Shown one piece after another: positions 3,748 through 62,603 of a DNA stretch of 64,000 nt. Origin of the DNA: Candidatus Babeliales bacterium (lineage in GTDB: Bacteria; Babelota; Babeliae; Babelales; JANWKD01). Below the pieces are notes generated by a model. That model saw only the letters and a list, made by a program, of their open reading frames with translations, had not been told where the DNA came from and ran no database searches. Both the position numbers and the translations under genes were made by a program. The first letter of the stretch is position 1; every line of letters starts with the position of its first letter. The stretch spans positions 288,001 to 352,000 of the forward strand of contig CAVXJH010000003.1 in the NCBI GenBank assembly GCA_963762115.1, written 5' to 3'.

Positions 3748-4764
3748 ATGCATTTAAAAAATATTTTTATATTAGTATTAATAGCTATTTCTATCTTGAG
3801 TTGTTTTCATAGCTATAAAAAAAGAAATAACAAAAACACACTTGCTCAGAAAATCTATACGATATTTGAACAGCACTTAGTCACCTATGATATTGATGAG
3901 CGGAGTATTAGCGCGAATGTAGATACAAACGACCAACCTATATCAGGACAACAACTTTTTATCAATCAGATTTGCAAGCATATGCAGACACACAAACCAA
4001 TTACAATGCTCTTAATTGGATTTCCTTTCAAAGCCGTTAATACTGAAAAAAAAGTTATTAGTAGATTACCCGATATGGCAGAACGAAGATCACTTGAATA
4101 CCTACAAACGATGCTGGATAAGATCAAGTTGGTTTATGAACCTGGTGCACAAATAACAATTTTTTGTGATGGCGTTCAATTTGCCGAATTTTTTGAAATA
4201 CCACTCGAAGATGTAGAGCATTATGAACAAACACTAAAAATACTCATAAAGGACTTACCGAATATTAAGCTTTACTGCTCAGCAGAATTTATCGAAGATA
4301 ACAATCTAAATCATGCATCAGAAATTAATACTGTTATCGATCAATATGACCCTAGTACCGAAAATTTCAAAAAAAATTTACCACCAATACTAGAGCTTGC
4401 CAAAAGGCGCATTAGTTTGGATTTTGATTGCAAAAAAAGCAAAAAAGTCTTGGAACATCATTCGCTTGATTCTATTGTCATTGATTTATTAGCACGTGAA
4501 GCAAGGTTACGCAATTATATTACTAAAATGTTTCCAGCTGAAAAATTCATTCGTCTAACCGTACATTTCTCTCAGGATATAAGCAAAAAATTTGGCATAA
4601 AAGTTTCACCTTCGTCATACATTACGCCTTATCATGGAGTACTTGTACAAGACAAAAATAACAATTGGAAAATTCAATTTAAAAAAGATGTTGACACGAC
4701 TAAATACAAAATAACATCAACAATGATTAACGGCATTCGATGCCCATATTTTATAGAAATTTAA
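3748..4764 (+). CDS. PvcA/Dit1-family (Tyr/Trp) isonitrile synthase homologue with N-terminal signal/anchor
   Basis: Family motifs GFPFKAVN, RLPDMAE, IFCDG, IRLTVH, TPYHG. Confidence 0.82.
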   Translation: MHLKNIFILVLIAISILSCFHSYKKRNNKNTLAQKIYTIFEQHLVTYDIDERSISANVDTNDQPISGQQLFINQICKHMQTHKPITMLLIGFPFKAVNTEKKVISRLPDMAERRSLEYLQTMLDKIKLVYEPGAQITIFCDGVQFAEFFEIPLEDVEHYEQTLKILIKDLPNIKLYCSAEFIEDNNLNHASEINTVIDQYDPSTENFKKNLPPILELAKRRISLDFDCKKSKKVLEHHSLDSIVIDLLAREARLRNYITKMFPAEKFIRLTVHFSQDISKKFGIKVSPSSYITPYHGVLVQDKNNNWKIQFKKDVDTTKYKITSTMINGIRCPYFIEI

Positions 4765-4799
4765 TTTTTATTTTTACCATTAAAGTTAAGGAAATAATC

Positions 4800-6065
4800 A
4801 TGCTTTGTTTTAAAAAAATTCATATTATTATTACATCTCTACTTATTACTTCTTCATCACTTATTGGCATGGAAGATGGATTTTCCGACCAGACCACTAT
4901 TAAACAATTCGATCAAGAAAATTTTAACTTCCCCCTCATACATCCCATTCCACAACAATTAAGAAACCTTCCAGAAGCATTCATGCGTTATGTTAACCAA
5001 CTTCCACGCATAACCATGGATAATGGTTCTATTGAAATTGAAAGCACTATCACTGAATTTATTTGTAAATTTAGCAATAGCCATAATCCTATAACAGGCA
5101 AAGAAGTACTTATAGAAAAAATAAGGCGTAACATTAATCAAGGATCGCCAATCTCATTCATGCTTTTAGGATTTCCCATAAAATCCCCTAATTCTGATAG
5201 CAAAGTAATTGCCCCATCATTAGATATGGCAGAACTTTGTGCACTTCTTACGCTTAACCATATTGCTAAAGAAATCGAAACTGTGTACTCATCTGGCGCT
5301 CAAATCAAACTTTGTACAAGAGAGCCGTTCATATTTGATTTCAATAATGCAGCAAAAAAAGGCGGGGGCATCGAACTTTTCTCAGAAGAAAAAGTTGAAA
5401 AATACCAGAGACAACTAAAAAGTCTTGTTGACTATTTTTTTCCCACTTTGCAAATAGATAATATAAGTGATATTAGGCAACTCTATAATGAAAAATATGC
5501 TCATGAACCCGCAGCAATTAATAAATCTGATAAGGCTAACTATAGTGTGTTTATGCAAGAAGAAATTAGATATGAAGCCTTTTTAGATTCGCTAAGAACA
5601 GAAGTATTGGCTAATAATGATATGGTTAGAGCATCTGTTAATAAAAAATTTAAAGAGGCGCAAGGTCATAATTTCATGAGTATGAAACAACATTTTGATC
5701 TCAGTACAATAGAAAAAATAAAAAAACTCATACCCATCAACGCTGAAATTAAAAAAATTGCCGAAGCCCTTAGCGTTCATGCTGCTCTTGGGGCCATACG
5801 AATGCGCAAATTAATTGAAGAAAACTATGCCACTGAAAATTATATACGCCTTTCGATTCATCCAAGCAAAGACGGTGATGTAAGTCAAAAATTAGGAATC
5901 AATCTTATTCCAGGATCAACATTAACACCTTGGCATGCGGCAGCAGTGGTTACCCGCGAAGGCATGGTTACTTTAAAACACACAAAAGAAGTTAAAAAAA
6001 AGGCGGTAAAACATTACACTACAGCCCATAACCTTAATCTTGCGTACCTAGAGGAAAACTTATGA
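4800..6065 (+). CDS. Second PvcA/Dit1-family homologue with signal peptide
   Basis: GFPIKSPN, LDMAE, IRLSIHP, TPWHA; start moved to ATG 4800 (AAGGA RBS, MLCFKKIHIIITSLLITSSSLIG signal). Confidence 0.78.
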   Translation: MLCFKKIHIIITSLLITSSSLIGMEDGFSDQTTIKQFDQENFNFPLIHPIPQQLRNLPEAFMRYVNQLPRITMDNGSIEIESTITEFICKFSNSHNPITGKEVLIEKIRRNINQGSPISFMLLGFPIKSPNSDSKVIAPSLDMAELCALLTLNHIAKEIETVYSSGAQIKLCTREPFIFDFNNAAKKGGGIELFSEEKVEKYQRQLKSLVDYFFPTLQIDNISDIRQLYNEKYAHEPAAINKSDKANYSVFMQEEIRYEAFLDSLRTEVLANNDMVRASVNKKFKEAQGHNFMSMKQHFDLSTIEKIKKLIPINAEIKKIAEALSVHAALGAIRMRKLIEENYATENYIRLSIHPSKDGDVSQKLGINLIPGSTLTPWHAAAVVTREGMVTLKHTKEVKKKAVKHYTTAHNLNLAYLEENL

Positions 6066-11116: not shown

Positions 11117-11992
11117 TTAACATGGGCCAATCGGAAATATAGTCTTTAAAACACAGTTACTATTTCCAGCAAGACCATTTAAGTTTGCTAATGGACCCTC
11201 TAAAAAGCTAAGTTCCTGACTAATAGTTACAAGTAAGTCTGTCATAGTAGCACAACAGATAGCAAGCTGACTTCCAGCTAAATTAAAACAACTACCAATA
11301 AGTATCTCCAAATTTATTAATTCATTTAAATAATTATTTAAACCAACATTAATACTAAATCCGTTATACAAAATACTATAAGTACTATTAAAACCAACAC
11401 TTAATACTGAAAAAGTACCATTAAAATCATTTACAATACTATTACAACATGCAGTAAGTGTATTTTTTATATCAAATAATGTTGTAAAGGTACTATTAAA
11501 TCCAACAGTATTAGCGTTACAACAACTTACAACCAATGAATGTACTTTTTCATGTAAAAAATTAGCGACTGCAGACAAATCACAATGCATATTTTCCGCC
11601 CAAGGCTGACCTATATTAATACGCAATGCTTCCGATTGCGCTTTTTCTAGGGCATGTTCTAAATCGGGAAAAGCACTTATGAGATCCTCCGTTAAAAATA
11701 CATTCTTATCATAAATTATGTTTTCATAGCATTGTAATAACCCAGGAGATAACTTATGTACTACACCCTCTTGCAATGCATTTTCAACAACCGCTACTAC
11801 AAACAATTTAAAGTGTTGATCATCAATTACAACAGATAATGGTGCCAGATTTTCTATATATTCATCCTGCGTAATACAACTCACATTCTCTTCCTGTTTA
11901 TTTTGCTCATGAAAAATTTCGCTTGCACCTAAATTCATCACAAAGCTCATATAAAAAATTAAAAACAACCTCAAGCTATTCGTTACCTGCAT
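11117..11992 (-). CDS. Exported Cys-Cys/FNxTF repeat protein, paralog 4 of 4
   Basis: Signal peptide; CDLS, CC pairs, FNGTF repeats, C-terminal FPIGPC. Confidence 0.75.
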   Translation of the reverse strand: MQVTNSLRLFLIFYMSFVMNLGASEIFHEQNKQEENVSCITQDEYIENLAPLSVVIDDQHFKLFVVAVVENALQEGVVHKLSPGLLQCYENIIYDKNVFLTEDLISAFPDLEHALEKAQSEALRINIGQPWAENMHCDLSAVANFLHEKVHSLVVSCCNANTVGFNSTFTTLFDIKNTLTACCNSIVNDFNGTFSVLSVGFNSTYSILYNGFSINVGLNNYLNELINLEILIGSCFNLAGSQLAICCATMTDLLVTISQELSFLEGPLANLNGLAGNSNCVLKTIFPIGPC

Positions 11993-12044
11993 ATCTATAC
12001 TCCTTTTTTTATTATTTTATATCATAAATTTTCATTACCACGAA

Positions 12045-12905
12045 TTAGCAAGTTGTTAAGGGGAAATTAAAATTAAGTATACAATTAGTTTGAGCCTCAA
12101 TATTATGCAACTGACCTACTAATACGGTAGCGTTTGCAACAGAACTTTGAAAAGCACTTAGTATATTCGTAACTTGAGTACAACAGCTCTCGAGATCCGC
12201 TATAAAATTCTCACAAAAACAATTCGTAAAAGTGACTATCGCACTGTTACTATTAATTGCTTCAATTATAGTGAAGGTTCCATTAAAATTTACGTCTAAT
12301 AAAGAAAAAGTACTATTAAACCCAAAGTTTAAGGCCGAAAATGTTCCAGCAAATTCTGTTGCAACAAAGGCACAACAATCAGTTAAAGTATCTTCGAGAT
12401 CACCCAATGCAGTAAATGTCGCATTAAATGCAGCACTGTTGTTAGCACAACATTGAGAAAGCAATTCAAACAATTCTCTTACTAATCTATTAACCTCAGA
12501 GAGATCACATGTAGTTGGACCTACCATGCTTTCCATTAAACTTGGTCGTGGTGCTTTTGTTTCTAAAATAGTTAATCCATACATTAATTCAGGCAATATC
12601 TGCTTAATATGCTCCACCGAAAAGGTATTATCGCCTTGGCATACTTGCTCATAACAAGTAAGAAGATCATTTGAAAGGTTATATAAATAACCTTTTTCTA
12701 TCGCATCTTTTACCAATTCAATAACAAACAATTTGAAATGTGGACTGTCAATTGTTATTTCAATCAAATTACCCTTCTTTACTATCTCAGACTCTATCAC
12801 CAAATCTAATTCACGCAATGATTCGGAAAAAGTTTGCCCTTTCAAAAAAAACACACACGGTATTTGCATTATAAAAAATAGAGTAAAAAAATATTTTATA
12901 TTCAT
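12045..12905 (-). CDS. Exported Cys-Cys/FNxTF repeat protein, paralog 3 of 4
   Basis: Same motifs (KAPRP…VGP..CDLS, CC, FNGTFT, FPLTTC); AAGGAG RBS. Confidence 0.75.
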   Translation of the reverse strand: MNIKYFFTLFFIMQIPCVFFLKGQTFSESLRELDLVIESEIVKKGNLIEITIDSPHFKLFVIELVKDAIEKGYLYNLSNDLLTCYEQVCQGDNTFSVEHIKQILPELMYGLTILETKAPRPSLMESMVGPTTCDLSEVNRLVRELFELLSQCCANNSAAFNATFTALGDLEDTLTDCCAFVATEFAGTFSALNFGFNSTFSLLDVNFNGTFTIIEAINSNSAIVTFTNCFCENFIADLESCCTQVTNILSAFQSSVANATVLVGQLHNIEAQTNCILNFNFPLTTC

Positions 12906-12928
12906 ATTCGTAGCTCCTTAAAAAAGTT

Positions 12929-13801
12929 CTAACAAGGTCCAATAGGAAAGCTTATTCTTGCAATACAATTACTAGCATCAATATATGGGTCTAATCGAAC
13001 TAATACATCATATACATTAGTTTGAAAATTGTTATAAAGAGCACTAGACGTTGCTATAAGCTGAGTACAACAATTATTAAGTTGTGTAGTTAAACTATTA
13101 CAGCAATTATTAATCGCGTTAACAAGGCTATTATTTCGCGTTTCAAGGTTGGTCAATACAGTAAATGTTCCATTAAACTCTAGAGTTAAATCAGGATACA
13201 AACCACTAAAAAAATGATTTATAACGGTAAATGTTCCATTAAATTCATTAGTTATATTGGCACAACATTCAATAATAGTGTTTTTTATATCTTCAATTAA
13301 AGTAAAAGTGGCCTCGAAAGAGACTTCATTCTGACTACAACAACTGAATAATAATGATGATATTTTCTTTATAAGTCTCTCAACCTCACTAAGATCGCAT
13401 GGCAAAGGACCTACAAGAGCATTATTAGAATCTGACATATTGGGACGTGGCGCTTTAAGCGAGATTAGTTTCAACCCAAAAATCAAGTCTGGAAGAGCGT
13501 CCTGCAAATCTTCGAGCTTAAATGTATTATTATGGTGACCAATTTGCTCATAACATTTCAGTAATCCATTAGAGACATTGCGCAATCTGCCGTTTTTCAG
13601 GGCATTTTTTATGAGCTTTTTCACTAATAATTCAAAATGAATATTTTCGATTGTCATATATCGCGCATCATCACATTCAAAAACCGTTATACCATCAACA
13701 TCATCTGACAATGGCCATGATTCTATATTATTCCCTGCATGTAAAAAATGTATACTTATGCAGCCAAATAATACGAACCCTATAATATGCCTTATTTTCA
13801 T
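12929..13801 (-). CDS. Exported Cys-Cys/FNxTF repeat protein, paralog 2 of 4
   Basis: Same motifs; ends FPIGPC. Confidence 0.75.
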   Translation of the reverse strand: MKIRHIIGFVLFGCISIHFLHAGNNIESWPLSDDVDGITVFECDDARYMTIENIHFELLVKKLIKNALKNGRLRNVSNGLLKCYEQIGHHNNTFKLEDLQDALPDLIFGLKLISLKAPRPNMSDSNNALVGPLPCDLSEVERLIKKISSLLFSCCSQNEVSFEATFTLIEDIKNTIIECCANITNEFNGTFTVINHFFSGLYPDLTLEFNGTFTVLTNLETRNNSLVNAINNCCNSLTTQLNNCCTQLIATSSALYNNFQTNVYDVLVRLDPYIDASNCIARISFPIGPC

Positions 13802-13846
13802 AAACTTCCTTTTTCTAAGACGTTACTAAAAATATCAACCCAAAAC

Positions 13847-14740
13847 CTAAAAACAAAACGAAAGTGTTGGACACCCAGTTGTGGGATATGCTATTGCAAG
13901 TATACAATATGATGAACATTCATAATTAAATGCCCTAGTAGCTAAATTTGCAAGAGGACTTATCAGTGGCCCCAGAGTAGCAAGATCATTTATAATGGTA
14001 GTGCAACAATTACCGAGTGAAGTGGCAAGATTATTACAACTACCACCAAGAACGTCAGTAACAATAGTAATTTCAAGGTTAATTGCTTGAGCAAGAGTAA
14101 ACGTAATATCAAATCCGGTCCTAAAAGTAGTATAAGTATTCGTAGACCCTTCAAGCAATACCGAAAAGGTAGCATTAAAATCATTAATAATATTAGCGCA
14201 ACACGCCGTTAAGGTTCCCTTTATATCATATAATGCCGTAAAAGTGCCATTAAAAGCGATTGATGATTCTTGACAACATACAAAGAGCAAGTTGTAAATT
14301 GAATTCAATAGTGCGTTAACGTCTGCAAGATCACAATCTAGAGGCCCAACAATAGGATGAACTTCTCCAGGACGTGGCGCTTTCTCTTGCATTTTTACCA
14401 ATTCAGGCATCAAATCTTCCCATGCTTCTTTCAAATCTTCTGCAGCAAATACACAATCATTTTTACAACTTTGCTCATAACATTTAAGTAAACCATTTGA
14501 AAACGTATGCACTCTTCCTTCCTCTAAAGCATTTTCAACCACAGAAATAATAAAATTTCTAAAGCATGGATTAACAATCTTAACTCCAACATCATAATTA
14601 AATTTTTGCACAACAATATCTTCAATATTAGAATATTGCTTCTCTTCATGCATATTAATTACATCAGAAATTTCTATACCACTAATCAATGATATATGAA
14701 CCACCGAATAAAAAATTATACCCGCAAGATTTCGCATCAC
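13847..14740 (-). CDS. Exported Cys-Cys/FNxTF repeat protein, paralog 1 of 4
   Basis: Same motifs; AAGGAG RBS. Confidence 0.75.
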   Translation of the reverse strand: MMRNLAGIIFYSVVHISLISGIEISDVINMHEEKQYSNIEDIVVQKFNYDVGVKIVNPCFRNFIISVVENALEEGRVHTFSNGLLKCYEQSCKNDCVFAAEDLKEAWEDLMPELVKMQEKAPRPGEVHPIVGPLDCDLADVNALLNSIYNLLFVCCQESSIAFNGTFTALYDIKGTLTACCANIINDFNATFSVLLEGSTNTYTTFRTGFDITFTLAQAINLEITIVTDVLGGSCNNLATSLGNCCTTIINDLATLGPLISPLANLATRAFNYECSSYCILAIAYPTTGCPTLSFCF

Positions 14741-14914
14741 TTACTCCTTTTTTTAAATGATTATTATTTCTTAGTTTAAGATAGTAAGAACTAATAAAAT
14801 TAAACAATAATTTTGTAAGAATATGTAAAAAAAGAGCGAATAACCGGTCCTAGATAACTAAAAAAAATCGTACTAAGCATTATGAAAAATCATCATTAAA
14901 AATTAAAAAAAAGC

Positions 14915-14988
14915 TTGACAAATTCTATTTGCACGATCTGGCTATTTTTAATATAAATTGTTGACTATTTGTAATTTATAGGTATACT
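14915..14988 (+). promoter_or_regulatory. Sigma70-type promoter plus conserved upstream box (copy 1)
   Basis: TTGACT(14961)-16 nt-TATACT(14983); upstream TTGACAAATTCTATTTGCA; near-identical copy at 15979..16053. Confidence 0.7.
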
Positions 14989-15034
14989 GAGAATAAAGAA
15001 AGTTATAAAATACCTAAAAAAAGGGCTAAAACTT

Positions 15035-15892
15035 ATGAAATTTATAAAATTAAACCATATTGCACTGTTAACCATTTTTGTTGGTTCTTATTATTTCTTA
15101 TATTCACTTGGCACAACAAATAAAATTGCCCCTGTTATTCAAATTTCAAACAATGAAGTAATTAAGCCAAATCTTATTGAACGATTACATTTCAATCAAA
15201 TTTTAGAAAGTAACTCAAAGGAAACTATTATCGCTGAACTTGATAAGCAAGAAAACGAAATTTGGCAAAATCTAGAAAAAATTATTCATATTAATAAAGA
15301 AGAATGCAATAGACTAAAATCAAATGAGTGGGCAGAAACTTATTCAAAGACAGAAAAATCCTTAATTATGCAATATGAACACGTAAAAAAACTGTCAGAA
15401 AAGAATTATAACATTGCTTGTGAAGTGTTATCTGATTGTGGAATTAATCCGGAAACTATTACTATTACTTCATGGGATCATCCCTCAGCCGCAGCTGCAA
15501 CAGATAATGCATTATTTATTAATGAAGATATATTTTCTCCGTTATCACTATCAATTAAAAAATTTGCTCTTGCTCATGAAATAACTCATATGATTAAGAA
15601 AGATTATTCAACAAAATATATAATTGAAAAAATAAAAATCACCAATAAAATAGATTCTGATGAGCTAACTCACACACTTGCTTTATTAACACAATTTACC
15701 GAAGCAAGAGCTGATATCATAGCTACTTTGCGCAACTCAGAATATGCTCAAGGCCAAGTTCAGTTCATGATTAATCAATTAGAAACATTGGGAAACCCAG
15801 AATATAAAGAATACCCAACAAATAGTTTACGCCTTGAAATAGGCAAAAAAATTCTTGCTCTCCACACAACAAATCAACCCGTAGTAAGTTAA
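15035..15892 (+). CDS. M48-like zinc metalloprotease, membrane-anchored
   Basis: LAHEITH, EARAD, YP…R motifs; N-terminal TM. Confidence 0.75.
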   Translation: MKFIKLNHIALLTIFVGSYYFLYSLGTTNKIAPVIQISNNEVIKPNLIERLHFNQILESNSKETIIAELDKQENEIWQNLEKIIHINKEECNRLKSNEWAETYSKTEKSLIMQYEHVKKLSEKNYNIACEVLSDCGINPETITITSWDHPSAAAATDNALFINEDIFSPLSLSIKKFALAHEITHMIKKDYSTKYIIEKIKITNKIDSDELTHTLALLTQFTEARADIIATLRNSEYAQGQVQFMINQLETLGNPEYKEYPTNSLRLEIGKKILALHTTNQPVVS

Positions 15893-15900
15893 CATTAAAT

Positions 15901-15936
15901 AAAAGCCTGAATAATAAAAAAACTATTCAGGCTTTT
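15901..15936 (+). terminator. Intrinsic terminator
   Basis: AAAAGCCTGAATA…TATTCAGGCTTTT inverted repeat. Confidence 0.7.
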
Positions 15937-15978
15937 AGCCCTATTATTCTTTTTCCCTATCAAACCTGTAAATATACC

Positions 15979-16053
15979 TTGACAAATTCTATTTGCATGA
16001 TCTAAAAAGCATTTAAAATAAATTATTGACTATTTGTATTTTATGGGTATACT
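15979..16053 (+). promoter_or_regulatory. Sigma70-type promoter plus conserved upstream box (copy 2)
   Basis: TTGACT(16026)-16 nt-TATACT(16048); upstream TTGACAAATTCTATTTGCA. Confidence 0.7.
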
Positions 16054-16100
16054 GAGTATATAAAGTGAGAGAAAAAGTACCTAAAAAGGAGTAAAAACCT

Positions 16101-16940
16101 ATGAATTTTAATAATAAGAATATCATATTAATTATAGCCGCAATCATTGGTATTGTACCTGCCATCATATTTAATACCAAAAACAGAACAACTGCAATAA
16201 CCCCGAATTTGATTGCAACTATTCAACTTGATAAACATATAACAAAAAACGATTATTACACTGACATTTCGCCTAATCAAAACAAAGGTGATAAAGAAGC
16301 GTATCTTGCTTGGTTAAAACAAGAAGAAGAAGCTCTTTGGAAAGACGTAACAACATTAACTAACGTTACCTTTGATGCATGTAAAACATTACGACAAGAA
16401 TTTCAAGAAGCACATGACAAAGAAACAGCAGAATTAAAACAACAATTAAGCCTTGGCAAAGAAGTTGCACCACATATTAGAGAAGTTATTGAAAGTGTTG
16501 TGCGCGATTTAGGATGTCAGCCGCTTGAAATTATTTCATGTGAATATCCTGTTGCCGCTGCAACACATGGCCCCGTTGTTTTTGTTAATGAAGAAATATT
16601 CAATACAATGTCGACTCTCGCACAAAAATTCGTTGTTGCCCATGAAATTATACATATTTTATTGCAAGATGACGAAACGCGCTTTGTATTCAAAAATAAA
16701 GGTTTTTTCACGAATGATTCATCACTCGATTATGCAATGAACAAATTATATCGCTTTCAAGAATTACGTGCCGACATGCTTGCAGCACTCACTAATACTG
16801 ATTATGCTCGCGGTTACAATGAATATGTTCACAATGCGTTATCACGAAGAGACGGCGAAGAAATCACCGAATTATTTTATCCAACCTACGCACTCAGACA
16901 AACAACAAGTGAAAAGATTGAACAGTTATTAGTTGTATAA
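16101..16940 (+). CDS. M48-like zinc metalloprotease
   Basis: VAHEIIH, ELRAD, YP…R; AAGGAG RBS. Confidence 0.75.
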   Translation: MNFNNKNIILIIAAIIGIVPAIIFNTKNRTTAITPNLIATIQLDKHITKNDYYTDISPNQNKGDKEAYLAWLKQEEEALWKDVTTLTNVTFDACKTLRQEFQEAHDKETAELKQQLSLGKEVAPHIREVIESVVRDLGCQPLEIISCEYPVAAATHGPVVFVNEEIFNTMSTLAQKFVVAHEIIHILLQDDETRFVFKNKGFFTNDSSLDYAMNKLYRFQELRADMLAALTNTDYARGYNEYVHNALSRRDGEEITELFYPTYALRQTTSEKIEQLLVV

Positions 16941-16958
16941 AAAACCAAGGATTATCTA

Positions 16959-17804
16959 ATGAAAAAAGTAAATAATAAAAAAATTATTGCCCTATTTATC
17001 ATATTAGCTTGCACGATGCTATTCACTGTTTGCTACAGAGCTCAACAAATTACCAACAACAAAGACAATAGCACAATTCAACCAAATTTAGTTGATCGCT
17101 TTAATTTTTCTGATTTTGTTGATTGCACTTCACCAAAAGAGTACTTAACAATAGTCGATAAAAAAGACAAAAGCATATGGCACGCAATAGAAAGCGCTCT
17201 TGGCATTACACAAGAACAATTTATAGCTATGAAAAATGAAGATGCATGGCAAGAAAAATATAATGCAGTAATGAATGACATGGCATCACATTATGCACAA
17301 GCAAAAGAAATTTCAAAAGAAAACTATCAACTTGCCACAGAAATACTTAGCTTATGCGGCTTGGATAATAAAAATATTAAGATTATTGCTTGGGATGGGC
17401 CAGCTCCGGCAGCTTCAACAGATACTCTTTTGCTCATTAACCAAGAACTTTTTGAGCCGTTATCTCTTGAAATTAAAAAGTTCATTATAGCTCATGAAAG
17501 CAGTCATATAATTAATAAAGATCATTCGACAAGTTGCATGCTTGAAGATTTCAACGAACTTCAAAAAGATAACTCAAAAACTTTATCAAAGGTAATGAAT
17601 GAATGTTCACATTTTTGTGAGGTTAGAGCTGATATCTTTGCTACATCACACGGAATAGAATTTGCACAAGGTCACGTTTTGTTTGCTGAGCATGAATTAA
17701 AATTACTCGGCAACATAGTGCATCCACATTATCCATCAAATGGCGAACGCCTTGAAATTGGCCAAAAATTATTAGCAATGATTAAACAAAACAATAAAGT
17801 ATAA
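16959..17804 (+). CDS. M48-like zinc metalloprotease
   Basis: IAHESSH, EVRAD, HYPSNGERL. Confidence 0.75.
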   Translation: MKKVNNKKIIALFIILACTMLFTVCYRAQQITNNKDNSTIQPNLVDRFNFSDFVDCTSPKEYLTIVDKKDKSIWHAIESALGITQEQFIAMKNEDAWQEKYNAVMNDMASHYAQAKEISKENYQLATEILSLCGLDNKNIKIIAWDGPAPAASTDTLLLINQELFEPLSLEIKKFIIAHESSHIINKDHSTSCMLEDFNELQKDNSKTLSKVMNECSHFCEVRADIFATSHGIEFAQGHVLFAEHELKLLGNIVHPHYPSNGERLEIGQKLLAMIKQNNKV

Positions 17805-59679: not shown

Positions 59680-60855
59680 TGTATGTGTTCAGAGTTTCGG
59701 TGAATAAAAAATACCCACAAAAGTAAATCAGAGTTAGAATTGAATACGCAATATTAACAATTTTAACGCAGGAGTTCTTTTGTGAGTATAAATACATCGT
59801 ATCCTACTTTGGTTAGCAATTCAATAAAGTACATGCTAAAATATGTAGAAGAATATGAGCTTGTTAAGGCAAAGAAGCACCCACAATTTAGGTTTGTTCG
59901 AGAATTTTTTGAAGCCAGGGAACTCTGTTTCCAGAATTTTTATAAACTTTATGGGCGTTATAAAGCAGCCCAGGGAATTCCCGAACTTCTACTGCCTATA
60001 AGGCGCGGCCCTAAACCAAAATTTGAAGAATTGCCACTTGCAGATGATAGCCTTGTAAAAAAAATTTTAGAATACCGAAAATCAGGTTTAAATAGGTATG
60101 TTATCGCTGCAGCTCTCAAGAAAAATCCTTCGATCAAAAAAGGTATTTCTGCAAGTTCAGTGTATCGAACTTTACGAAAATATGGTGTTTCTAAATTAAC
60201 TAAATTAGTGCAAGAGGAAAAAAGAAAGATTGTGAGAACATTTGCAGGATCATTAGCTCATATAGATTGCCATTACCTACCTAAGGGAATTGTACAATCT
60301 GAACCTAAAAAGAAATATTTTGTATTGGGTGTAATTGATGATTTTTCGAGAATAGTTTGGGTCGAAGTAATTGAATCTTTAAAGGCAATTGATGTTGCCT
60401 TTGCTATGATGGATATTATTTTACATATGAACCAACGATATAATATCACCTTTGATGAAGCTCTGACAGATAATGGTGCTGAGTTTTGTTCAACGCCAGA
60501 AAAATTAAAAAATCATCCTTTTGAACGATTGCTACTTCATTTTGCGATTAAACATCGAAGAACTTTGCCTTATAGACCACAAACAAATGGAAAAATTGAA
60601 AGATTTTGGCGTTCTTTTGATGATGAAGTTATTGAAGGATCCATCTTTAACACAATCGATGAATTAAAAGATGCTGTTCTTGGATATAATTTCTATCACA
60701 ATGAACATCGGCCGCATCAAGGTTTGAATGGCAAAGTACCATTCGAATTGTTGAAAGAAACCGGCATACCCGTTTAAGGAATTAAAAAACTTACAATTCA
60801 ACTTTGATTGCCACTTTGTGCAAAAAATTATTCACCGAAACTCTGAACACATACA
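59680..60855 (+). mobile_element. IS481-family insertion sequence, 1176 bp
   Basis: Perfect 28-bp TIRs TGTATGTGTTCAGAGTTTCGGTGAATAA; 5-bp target duplication GCAAT (59675-59679 and 60856-60860). Confidence 0.92.
59782..60777 (+). CDS. IS481-family DDE transposase (rve integrase core)
   Basis: HID, IDDFSR, LTDNGAEF, PQTNGKIERF, YNFYHNEHRPHQGL. Confidence 0.92.
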   Translation: MSINTSYPTLVSNSIKYMLKYVEEYELVKAKKHPQFRFVREFFEARELCFQNFYKLYGRYKAAQGIPELLLPIRRGPKPKFEELPLADDSLVKKILEYRKSGLNRYVIAAALKKNPSIKKGISASSVYRTLRKYGVSKLTKLVQEEKRKIVRTFAGSLAHIDCHYLPKGIVQSEPKKKYFVLGVIDDFSRIVWVEVIESLKAIDVAFAMMDIILHMNQRYNITFDEALTDNGAEFCSTPEKLKNHPFERLLLHFAIKHRRTLPYRPQTNGKIERFWRSFDDEVIEGSIFNTIDELKDAVLGYNFYHNEHRPHQGLNGKVPFELLKETGIPV

Positions 60856-60939: not shown

Positions 60940-61506
60940 TTAATAGCCAAGGTAAGACCACCAAGAACGGCCCCGATTTGATGATTCAACATCTTCTAAC
61001 TCTTCTCTAGGGACTAAATACCATTCTTTTTCAATTTCTTTTCGTTCTCTTTTAAGTTTTTGATAAGGATCTTCTTTTAATGCCTTATTTTCAGTCACCT
61101 CTTGCAAACTGCTATCTGCAGTCACTGTTGCACCATACTTCAATAAAAGTTGAATGACACGAGGTTTGCCATAATAAGCTGCAAAAGCAAGTGGCGTCAA
61201 TAAGCTTGAATCAGGCATATTAGGATTAGCGCCAGCTTCCAACAATACCGCTACAATGCCTTCACTTACATCAGTTACAGGAATTGCAATAGCAGCCATA
61301 AGAGCTGCTTTGTTTCTTTGTTGTGCATTCGGATTTGCTCCTTTATTAAGCAAATTTTTTACAGCATATAAATCACCCTTCTTAATAGCAGTAAAAAGTG
61401 GCTCAGTTAACTGTTCATTAAATAAACGTCTTGATAAAGGCAACGCTACAAAGGTAATGCTCAGCAATCCTACAAAAAAAATATATTTTATTTTGATACT
61501 ATTCAT
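60940..61506 (-). CDS. Exported ankyrin-repeat protein with LIR/AIM-like tail
   Basis: GANPNA, TPLAFAA repeats; EKEWYLV; start trimmed to ATG 61506 (AAAGGA RBS). Confidence 0.85.
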   Translation of the reverse strand: MNSIKIKYIFFVGLLSITFVALPLSRRLFNEQLTEPLFTAIKKGDLYAVKNLLNKGANPNAQQRNKAALMAAIAIPVTDVSEGIVAVLLEAGANPNMPDSSLLTPLAFAAYYGKPRVIQLLLKYGATVTADSSLQEVTENKALKEDPYQKLKRERKEIEKEWYLVPREELEDVESSNRGRSWWSYLGY

Positions 61507-61508
61507 AA

Positions 61509-62039
61509 TTAATCCTTTTCTAATATAACCCATTCTTCTTCAGGTTGTTTTTCAATCAAACCTTCTTCAAATTCTTCAATAAGCTTTTGAATTGCTAACT
61601 GCTTTTGTTGTCTATTTTCAGCTTCTCGCCTTTCATGGTGTTCAAAAATATAATCAAGGCCTCTTTTTCCAAAACCATCAACAGCATTGATATCGCCACC
61701 ACGAGTACCTAAAATACTATAATATTCCAAATCACGAGACAGAGCATACGTGAAAGGTGTCATTTGATTGCCTGCTATCTTATTTGGATCCGCTCCCAAT
61801 CTTAGGAGCAACCTAACTAAAGGTGTTTTATAAAGCTCAATCGCTTTCATTAAAGCTGACACACCATCTAACTCTGCATCTGGACTAACACCATCAACTA
61901 TCAATTGATTTACTTGAGTTTCATCGCCAACCTCGATAGCACTAAAAAGTTCACTAATACGTGAATCATGATTATTCGCCTGAACGAGAGTTGCAGCACA
62001 ACACATTGTCATGCCGATTAATAAATATAATTTTTTCAC
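61509..62039 (-). CDS. Exported ankyrin-repeat protein with LIR/AIM-like tail
   Basis: Signal ending VQA; GADPN, TPFTYA, GGDINAVD; C-terminal EEEWVILEKD. Confidence 0.85.
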   Translation of the reverse strand: MKKLYLLIGMTMCCAATLVQANNHDSRISELFSAIEVGDETQVNQLIVDGVSPDAELDGVSALMKAIELYKTPLVRLLLRLGADPNKIAGNQMTPFTYALSRDLEYYSILGTRGGDINAVDGFGKRGLDYIFEHHERREAENRQQKQLAIQKLIEEFEEGLIEKQPEEEWVILEKD

Positions 62040-62057
62040 AAGTACCCCTTAGGAAAT

Positions 62058-62603
62058 TTAATCAATCATAGTCCAAGGTTCTTCTGGTATATTAATTTCT
62101 TCAAATTCACCAGCAAGAAGATCTAACTCTGCATTTTTTCTTGCGTTTTCACGTTTTATTCTATCAAGATCACGTTGTTTAGGATCTACATTAAGATAAT
62201 CTTGCATTGTTTTACCAAATGCATCTTTCTTGCTTCCTTTACCGCCAAAACTAATTATCCGCTCCATTGCCGCTTCATTTCCAAGATCAGCAGCAAAAGT
62301 CAACGCGGTCATGCCATTACCAGCAATAAAATCGATTGCTTTCAAGGCGCTGGCTTTTTCAAGCAAATGTTCCAATGCCGCAATCTCTGCACGATAATTT
62401 GTATGTTCTATCTGATACATTATTGCTGTTTTTCCATTTTCTTGAGCATTCGGATTAGCACCCTTAAGTACTAAATCCTCAACCAATGTTGCACGATTTT
62501 GCACATTAGGCGTTCGAATAATTTTCAAAAGTTGATTATCAAGAACATTATTTGCTTGAATTCCTACAACAACAAAAAATATAAGTAAACTCAATCGTTT
62601 CAT
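62058..62603 (-). CDS. Exported ankyrin-repeat protein with LIR/AIM-like tail
   Basis: Signal ending IQA; GANPNAQENGKTA, GMTALTFAA; C-terminal GEFEEI and EEPWTMID. Confidence 0.85.
   Translation of the reverse strand: MKRLSLLIFFVVVGIQANNVLDNQLLKIIRTPNVQNRATLVEDLVLKGANPNAQENGKTAIMYQIEHTNYRAEIAALEHLLEKASALKAIDFIAGNGMTALTFAADLGNEAAMERIISFGGKGSKKDAFGKTMQDYLNVDPKQRDLDRIKRENARKNAELDLLAGEFEEINIPEEPWTMID

Follow-up and report, generated by a model that had tools for sequence, protein, structure and literature searches.

What could the tails of secreted ankyrin proteins do in the Babelota, obligate parasites of protists that encode up to about a hundred such proteins, none of them given a target in the literature consulted? 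The question is raised by a stretch of 64,000 nucleotides from a Candidatus Babeliales bacterium (the window; its source genome, G000, is 1.53 Mb long, about 34% GC and 95% complete), in which three tandem ankyrin genes on the minus strand, genes 1, 2 and 3, each carry an acidic tryptophan motif in the C-terminal tail. The original prediction read these motifs as LC3-interacting regions (LIRs; also Atg8-interacting motifs, AIMs) and the proteins as possible bacterial mimics of host selective-autophagy receptors. Our analysis reveals that the motif is kept throughout a small ankyrin family, and the sequences suggest that the tails of genes 1 to 3 probably bind host Atg8. The family yields a specific and cheaply testable prediction, in which the host protein, the residues and the binding site are all named.

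The tail motif in the window and across its family

All three open reading frames (ORFs) encode products that match Pfam Ank_2 above cut-off and have N-termini that are basic and then hydrophobic; they are called exported here from our own signal-peptide heuristic and a reading of these N-termini, not from SignalP. Gene 1 (62058..62603, minus strand, 181 residues), of type A in the family described below, consists of a signal-peptide-like N-terminus, about three ankyrin repeats and a long charged helix, followed by EFEEI with its putative F-type LIR core FEEI (residues 167-170, 62094..62105, minus strand, in the stretch GEFEEI) and by a terminal W-type core, WTMI (residues 177-180, 62064..62075, minus strand, in EEPWTMI). 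Gene 2 (61509..62039, minus strand, 176 residues from a GTG start), defined by its ORF and Pfam match, is a divergent type A copy on a long tree branch, in which the F-core has degenerated to EFEEG and the putative W-type core is WVIL (61521..61532, minus strand, in EEEWVIL). Gene 3 (60940..61506, minus strand, 188 residues), of type B, runs from a signal-peptide-like N-terminus through ankyrin repeats and a helix to EKEWYLV-P-REEL, a second helix and an amphipathic end, so that its putative W-type core WYLV (residues 162-165, 61012..61023, minus strand, in EKEWYLV) stands 27 residues before the C-terminus. The ORF of gene 3 was called as 60940-61533, and its start is most likely the ATG at 61506 rather than 61533, because this ATG has an AAGGA ribosome site and agrees with the homologues. 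Apart from this correction, the three tandem ankyrin genes, their tail motifs and the low overall similarity of their products (31%, 22% and 21% pairwise identity) are as originally described. The best Foldseek matches of the gene 1 AlphaFold2 model are DARPins and ankyrins, while the ESM Atlas leads to generic ankyrin clusters and a PDB sequence search to generic ankyrins and DARPins. Signal, repeats, helix and tail wholly explain the 176-188 residues of these proteins, which have no catalytic domain.

Such tails are rare in the genome. In a set of 1,353 proteins from our own ORF call, only seven have W-x-x-[LIV] preceded by at least two acids at -1 to -3 within their last 50 residues, and genes 1 to 3, each with two or three acids at these positions, are three of the seven; the remaining 38 of the 41 ankyrin proteins of the genome (counted by our own repeat profile) all lack this tail, and one of them has the core with a single acid. 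Tail-only profiles retrieved no additional family member from the genome. Shuffles of the three 50-residue tails (20,000 each) yielded the motif in 3.1%, 4.0% and 6.4% of cases. By an ad hoc score without positional limit, the gene 2 core is joint top of 10,424 cores, five of which reach that score. Since only the gene 2 motif is outstanding alone, and since the three genes are paralogous and thus not independent draws, the argument rests on conservation across 25 homologues; this and the genomic rarity strengthen the original observation and speak for more than chance.

Three homologues were found at the same trxB-rpmH site in a genome of the same genus (G001), three at a different site in a genome of the same family (G003) and two at the syntenic site of a metagenome contig, and the motif is present in all eight. 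In a wider search with a profile that included the tail, the best 120 of 168 proteins, plus one match from a single-sequence search, were re-ranked, as a guard against circularity, by a profile confined to the ankyrin region, the candidate list itself coming from the tail-including profile. Among these 121 candidates, 20 proteins score 90-149 bits and the next scores 66. Among the matches listed, 20/20 proteins at 90 bits or more (15/15 without the five seeds) and 1/101 below have W-x-x-[LIV] preceded by at least one acid at -1 to -3 within the last 50 residues; with at least two acids the counts are 13/20 and 0/101. The aliphatic residue is at +3 in 20/20, at +4 in 0/20 and at +1 in 2/20. Orthologue conservation had been set beforehand as a possible refutation, and the motif is kept in 25 of 25 distinct family members, whose pairwise identity ranges from 19 to 92% (median 28%): W stands at 0 in all 25, +3 is I, L or V (13, 10 and 2 members), -1 is E or D in 20, -2 is E in 16, and +1 is E in 14, T in seven, Y in two and V or I in one each. 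Together with the W/F exchange described below, these substitutions keep within the rules of a LIR. Weaker matches, none above 74.5 bits, came from further families of the Babeliales; they were rejected as members and assigned to other ankyrin families. The family was not found in genomes G004 (93% complete) or G002 (64% complete); giant poly-ankyrin proteins dominated a profile search against 1.84 billion representatives, with none of family length among the 150 matches listed, and a single-sequence search with gene 2 returned the self-match only.

The tree divides the family into type A (13 members) and type B (12 members) with support of 100/99, and an HH comparison of the two subfamilies gives E=5e-28. 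All four clusters read contain genes of both types. In type A, a signal, ankyrin repeats and a charged helix are followed by E-F-x-x-[IL], an acidic spacer of varying length (about 6 to more than 20 residues from the helix to the terminal W-motif) and a terminal E-E-x-W-x-x-I; the F and its preceding E are aligned in 13/13 members, the full F-x-x-[IL] is complete in 12/13, and NGMTALTFAA is nearly invariant in the ankyrin domain. In type B, a signal, ankyrin repeats and a helix lead to E-W-E-[ILF]-L-P-[STA]-K-E-E, a linker and an S-x-W-x-x-[IV]-K-x-Y-L-G end. Against a mean tail identity of 0.51-0.58, column conservation is 100% for E166, F167 and W177 of type A and for E161 and P166 of type B, and 91% for W162 of type B. 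The profile alignment superposes the type A F-core on the type B W-core, and for this reason W and F appear to have been exchanged at one ancestral site, as the LIR pocket allows; one type B protein of G003 (L012) has F at the W-core site and a second W-motif.

Likeness to LC3B binders, accessibility and export

A canonical LIR or AIM has a [WFY]-x-x-[LIV] core with acids at -1 to -3 in a disordered, accessible region, and this core is present in 3/3 window proteins and 25/25 family members. A screen that displayed about 500,000 human peptides found W at 0, acids at -1 to -3 and E at +1 and +7, and yielded a consensus peptide of core EEWEIL whose LC3B affinity, about 60 nM, is comparable to that of ankyrin-B (ANK2) EEEWVIVSDEEI (bioRxiv 10.64898/2026.01.05.697675). 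Several family tails come near these binders (EEEWVIL, KEWEILPSKEEL, EEWEII, QEWEILP, KEWEILP and, in gene 3, WYLVPREEL), and relatives have the EWEIL of the consensus core; the reference data are those of human LC3B and not of a protist Atg8. The EEEWVIL of gene 2 equals the EEEWVIV of ankyrin-B at six of seven positions, and in gene 3 positions +7 and +8 are E and L, as in ankyrin-B and FYCO1, with a predicted helix from +5; E recurs at +7 in 11/12 type B members. According to a review, an acid at +7 and a following helix raise LIR affinity (PMC7615515). With the extended LIRs of ankyrin-B/G, FYCO1 and FAM134B the family shares the core, the +7 acid and the predicted helix after it (WYLVPREEL compared with WVIVSDEEI and FDIITDEEL). 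Those proteins are from animals, and in most type B members one more residue precedes the helix (P-[ST]-K-E-E). Because the likeness is confined to this short motif, convergence would be the simpler reading.

AlphaFold2 gave confident ankyrin domains for genes 1 and 3, followed by tails of low predicted local distance difference test (pLDDT; 47-68). In gene 1, a helix at 141-168 is followed by coil at 169-181, and because the pLDDT around the W-motif within this coil is below 50 (about 47-49), the terminal motif is predicted to be free. The low-confidence tail of gene 3 is modelled as a helix at 147-163, a break at L-V-P and a helix at 167-177, after which its C-terminal amphipathic segment (60943..60981, minus strand), with the S-x-W-x-x-[IV]-K-x-Y-L-G pattern of the family, is predicted to be a membrane-binding helix; the hydrophobic moments of the 12 type B tails are 0.30-0.69, given without a control set. 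Conservation, proteome rarity, predicted disorder at the gene 1 W-motif and the match to strong LC3B binders all speak for the LIR reading as far as sequence comparison reaches. The receptor-mimic step of the original prediction, by contrast, gained no direct support, and an Atg8 decoy or a ligand of the FIP200/Atg11 claw fits the same motif.

The genome encodes two secretins and ATP/ADP-translocase-family genes. CaaX ends, which are substrates of eukaryotic cytosolic enzymes, occur in 20/648 of its signal-peptide-type proteins compared with 6/705 others (p=0.003), and Cys is at -4 in 31 signal-peptide-type proteins compared with 7-14 at the other nine terminal positions. Because the enzymes that read CaaX are cytosolic, this excess indicates that signal-peptide-type Sec substrates of the bacterium likely meet the host cytosol, and together with the two secretins it favours host delivery. 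CaaX boxes (CIIS, CTLQ, CLIS and others) are found, for example, at C3:515706-518288, C6:42247-44721, C6:400668-403451 and C6:524308-525952, and our search of the open-access literature listed no paper on CaaX in Babelota. In Babela massiliensis and Chromulinavorax destructans, which belong to the same order and have ankyrin proteins of the same general signal-peptide class, 79/126 and 78% of 98 ankyrin proteins have signal peptides and are presumed host effectors; unlike here, the available parts of these reports assign no targets or motifs to them (PMC4378268, PMC6561590). The string 'autophag' occurs 0 times in PMC4378268, PMC4776705 and PMC12172432. G000 yielded no Atg8 homologue, and across 261 genomes of the phylum none passed the cut-off; the controls of these searches gave no match either.

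Several points weigh against Atg8 docking. LIR cores are degenerate, and according to the screen report no model beats iLIR at separating binders from non-binders (bioRxiv 10.64898/2026.01.05.697675). The ad hoc score of the gene 1 motif is matched or beaten by 64 of the 10,424 cores and that of gene 3 by 204, and Pro occupies -1 in the gene 1 W-motif. The models place F167 (gene 1) and W162 (gene 3) at a helix end, where binding would need unwinding; this first motif would need to fray, a mild count against docking. The family is narrow, with full-length matches in 3/261 genomes of the phylum (12 candidates scored per genome), and because the 25 sequences are kin, their counts show purifying selection and not independent origins. 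Neither do exported proteins show a general LIR enrichment, a check that the original prediction had proposed: W/F/Y cores occur in the last 40 residues of 12/569 signal-peptide proteins and 26/524 others (gene 3 falls outside this count through the membrane filter), and the motif is therefore a trait of one family and not a general one. Our view of Atg8 docking comes from sequences and single-chain models, with a presumed protist host. Finally, the consensus of the FIP200-interacting region (FIR), [DEST][DEST][FWYILV]xx[ILV], overlaps that of the LIR (PMC7615515), and 17/25 members fit it (10/13 type A, 7/12 type B).

Rival readings and a possible mode of action

The most credible alternative, unlikely as it is, takes these proteins as Atg8 decoys, whose tight binding would block host xenophagy by competition while the ankyrin domain serves as a mere carrier or localisation module without cargo. 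Motifs at the high-affinity optimum, in tandem and in several gene copies, would suit such a role, the isolated PexRD54 AIM peptide broadly suppresses autophagy (PMC8382295), and autophagy is inhibited by RavZ and Lem26, bacterial effectors known to carry LIRs (PMC8634866, PMC12977470). However, the subfamilies keep distinct and strongly conserved ankyrin motifs, such as NGMTALTFAA, which would be more than a carrier seems to need.

Acidic tryptophan tails also serve kinesin light chain, Arp2/3 and coat-adaptor ear domains. That the family engages a eukaryotic receptor of this kind, such as the kinesin light chain W-acidic site, the Arp2/3 acidic site or an adaptor ear, is quite improbable: a loose kinesin-light-chain pattern fits 6/12 type B tails but 0/13 of type A, and neither an invariant aliphatic residue at +3 nor a W/F exchange is known as a feature of such motifs.

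Very unlikely, too, is a tail that engages the FIP200/Atg11 claw, instead of or beside Atg8, and so starts or misdirects autophagosome formation. The overlap of consensus given above is in its favour, but position 0 is always aromatic here, where a FIR tolerates I, L or V, and 8/25 members have fewer than two acidic or hydroxyl residues upstream; the acid at +7 and the helix after it are LIR features (PMC7615515). We give similarly little credit to a structural or bacterial role, in which the tail packs on the ankyrin domain, builds hetero-oligomers of types A and B or acts as a secretion or periplasmic signal, the LIR likeness being coincidental. The first motif does close a predicted helix, and the pairing of both types in all four clusters fits a complex; against packing stand the low tail pLDDT in both models and the variable helix-to-W spacer, and a secretion signal should mark many exported proteins, whereas this one is seen on three. 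Chance, by which acidic Trp-bearing tails give the pattern by accident, as 3-6% of the shuffles of each tail do, is hardly credible and largely refuted by conservation, with invariant W, E-F and +3 columns between variable neighbours and 20/20 against 1/101 in the ranked candidates.

The best reading, quite possible though as a whole short of probable, is that the tails dock on Atg8 while the ankyrin domain holds a second host protein, as in PexRD54-like adaptors. In such a scheme, the proteins would leave by Sec export and be released by a type II-like secretin system or in outer-membrane vesicles. The motif would lie as a beta-strand in the two hydrophobic pockets of Atg8, with the upstream acids on its basic patch. 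The two motifs of type A could give avidity on membranes coated with lipidated Atg8, and type B could combine an ankyrin-B/FYCO1-like motif-plus-helix with an amphipathic end that inserts into the membrane. The ankyrin face might then carry host cargo or a trafficking factor to Atg8 membranes, with the outcome that membrane or nutrients would be diverted to the bacterial compartment and the host's own receptors displaced. A stronger version is possible but doubtful, namely that this Babelota lineage independently evolved two-component mimics of selective-autophagy receptors, type A with tandem LIRs and type B with an extended LIR and a membrane helix. Both would coat host Atg8 membranes, with ankyrin faces that bring selected proteins or organelle membrane of the protist to the compartment of the bacterium. 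In that case a bacterium would possess non-enzymatic counterparts of p62 or PexRD54 whose LIRs are close to the optimum, and these would be the first effectors of the Babelota for which a host target is named.

The locus, related tails and known systems

The window closes on the housekeeping genes tsf, pyrH, frr, a trigger-factor-like gene, trxB, rpmH and rnpA (named from translations), and its trxB-rpmH interval holds an IS481-type transposase and genes 1 to 3. The IS481-type element (59680-60855) sits between trxB and the ankyrin cluster, has perfect 28-nt inverted repeats that start with TGT and encodes an rve_3 transposase (59782-60777, Pfam); neither this element nor gene 2 has a counterpart at the trxB-rpmH site of loci L011 and L039. 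Promoter and terminator scans gave chance level only. One public DNA run shows no difference across the motif regions of genes 2 and 3 and may be the source sample, a second run holds a diverged relative, and a public RNA run has two 151-nt pieces within gene 1, which are not proof of transcription. Elsewhere in the window, two tandem DIT1/PvcA isonitrile-synthase-family genes (3748-6065) are unexpected for a reduced parasite genome, and seven ORFs of like size (279-297 residues; 11117-17804), six without a Pfam match and one a weak Peptidase_M78, are possibly an expanded paralogue family.

Other tails were seen in related genomes. An acid-preceded W-core occurs in 3/60 crude ankyrin-like ORFs of other Babeliales, all three from one paralogue set of genome G035 with W-G-N-I. 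This genome belongs to another family of the Babeliales, and in it three tandem ankyrin proteins with signal peptides (L089:326-3546) end in a helix and a pair of acidic tryptophans (EEEW...EGWGNIxQED), which could be an independent tail of LIR-like, adaptor-ear or Arp2/3 type. Ankyrin proteins of other Babeliales (L088:814-6307, L113, L099, L111) have LP-x-[DE]-L-x-x-I-V-x-x-Y tails, which we take to resemble SOCS-box/F-box E3-recruiting motifs. An array of small signal-peptide ankyrin proteins in L104 (G094:C52) has a basic IKPAKR-like tail, possibly a nuclear or membrane targeting signal. In addition, 37 viral-collection contigs (L043-L079; IMG/VR, many labelled GVMAG) match an Atg8 motif, most with intact, intron-free Atg8-like ORFs with a terminal Gly, and Pfam ATG8 was found in 2/2 examined; viral Atg8 has apparently already been mentioned in print.

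A search of the open-access literature, with subscription journals mostly outside its scope, found no report of LIR-bearing ankyrin proteins in Babelota or any bacterium. To our knowledge, a non-enzymatic repeat-plus-LIR adaptor has been described only from an oomycete. If Atg8 docking is true, the defence of protists against intracellular bacteria would have Atg8 membranes as a pressure point, and the C-termini of Babelota proteins (LIR, CaaX, SOCS/F-box-like) could be read as an index of effector function. In the sources consulted, the best-characterised bacterial LIR effectors are enzymes that shut autophagy down; RavZ and Lem26 of Legionella use a LIR or AIM to reach Atg8 membranes, RavZ with tandem LIRs and a membrane-targeting domain (PMC8634866, PMC12977470). 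These are, like the proteins proposed here, LIR/AIM effectors of a protist-adapted bacterium, but they are a protease and an ADP-ribosyltransferase delivered by Dot/Icm, whereas genes 1 to 3 have only ankyrin domains and Sec-type N-termini. Closer in design is PexRD54 of Phytophthora infestans, secreted and non-enzymatic, whose AIM D-W-E-I-V lies at a disordered C-terminus after tandem helical repeats (PMC5025708). It connects Rab8a vesicles with ATG8CL and acts as an antagonist of Joka2, a receptor of the host (PMC5025708, PMC8382295). PexRD54 differs in being a eukaryotic RXLR effector of plant hosts with WY domains, a single AIM and no homology to genes 1 to 3, which combine bacterial ankyrin repeats with tandem motifs or with a motif and an amphipathic helix and presumably meet a protist host. 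Having neither a WY nor a catalytic domain, genes 1 to 3 fall outside the PexRD54, RavZ and Lem26 families. Nevertheless, the AIM of PexRD54 compares with E-W-E-I-I/L in this family, and if the tails bind Atg8, a bacterium, an oomycete and animal ankyrin-B would have converged on nearly the same peptide.
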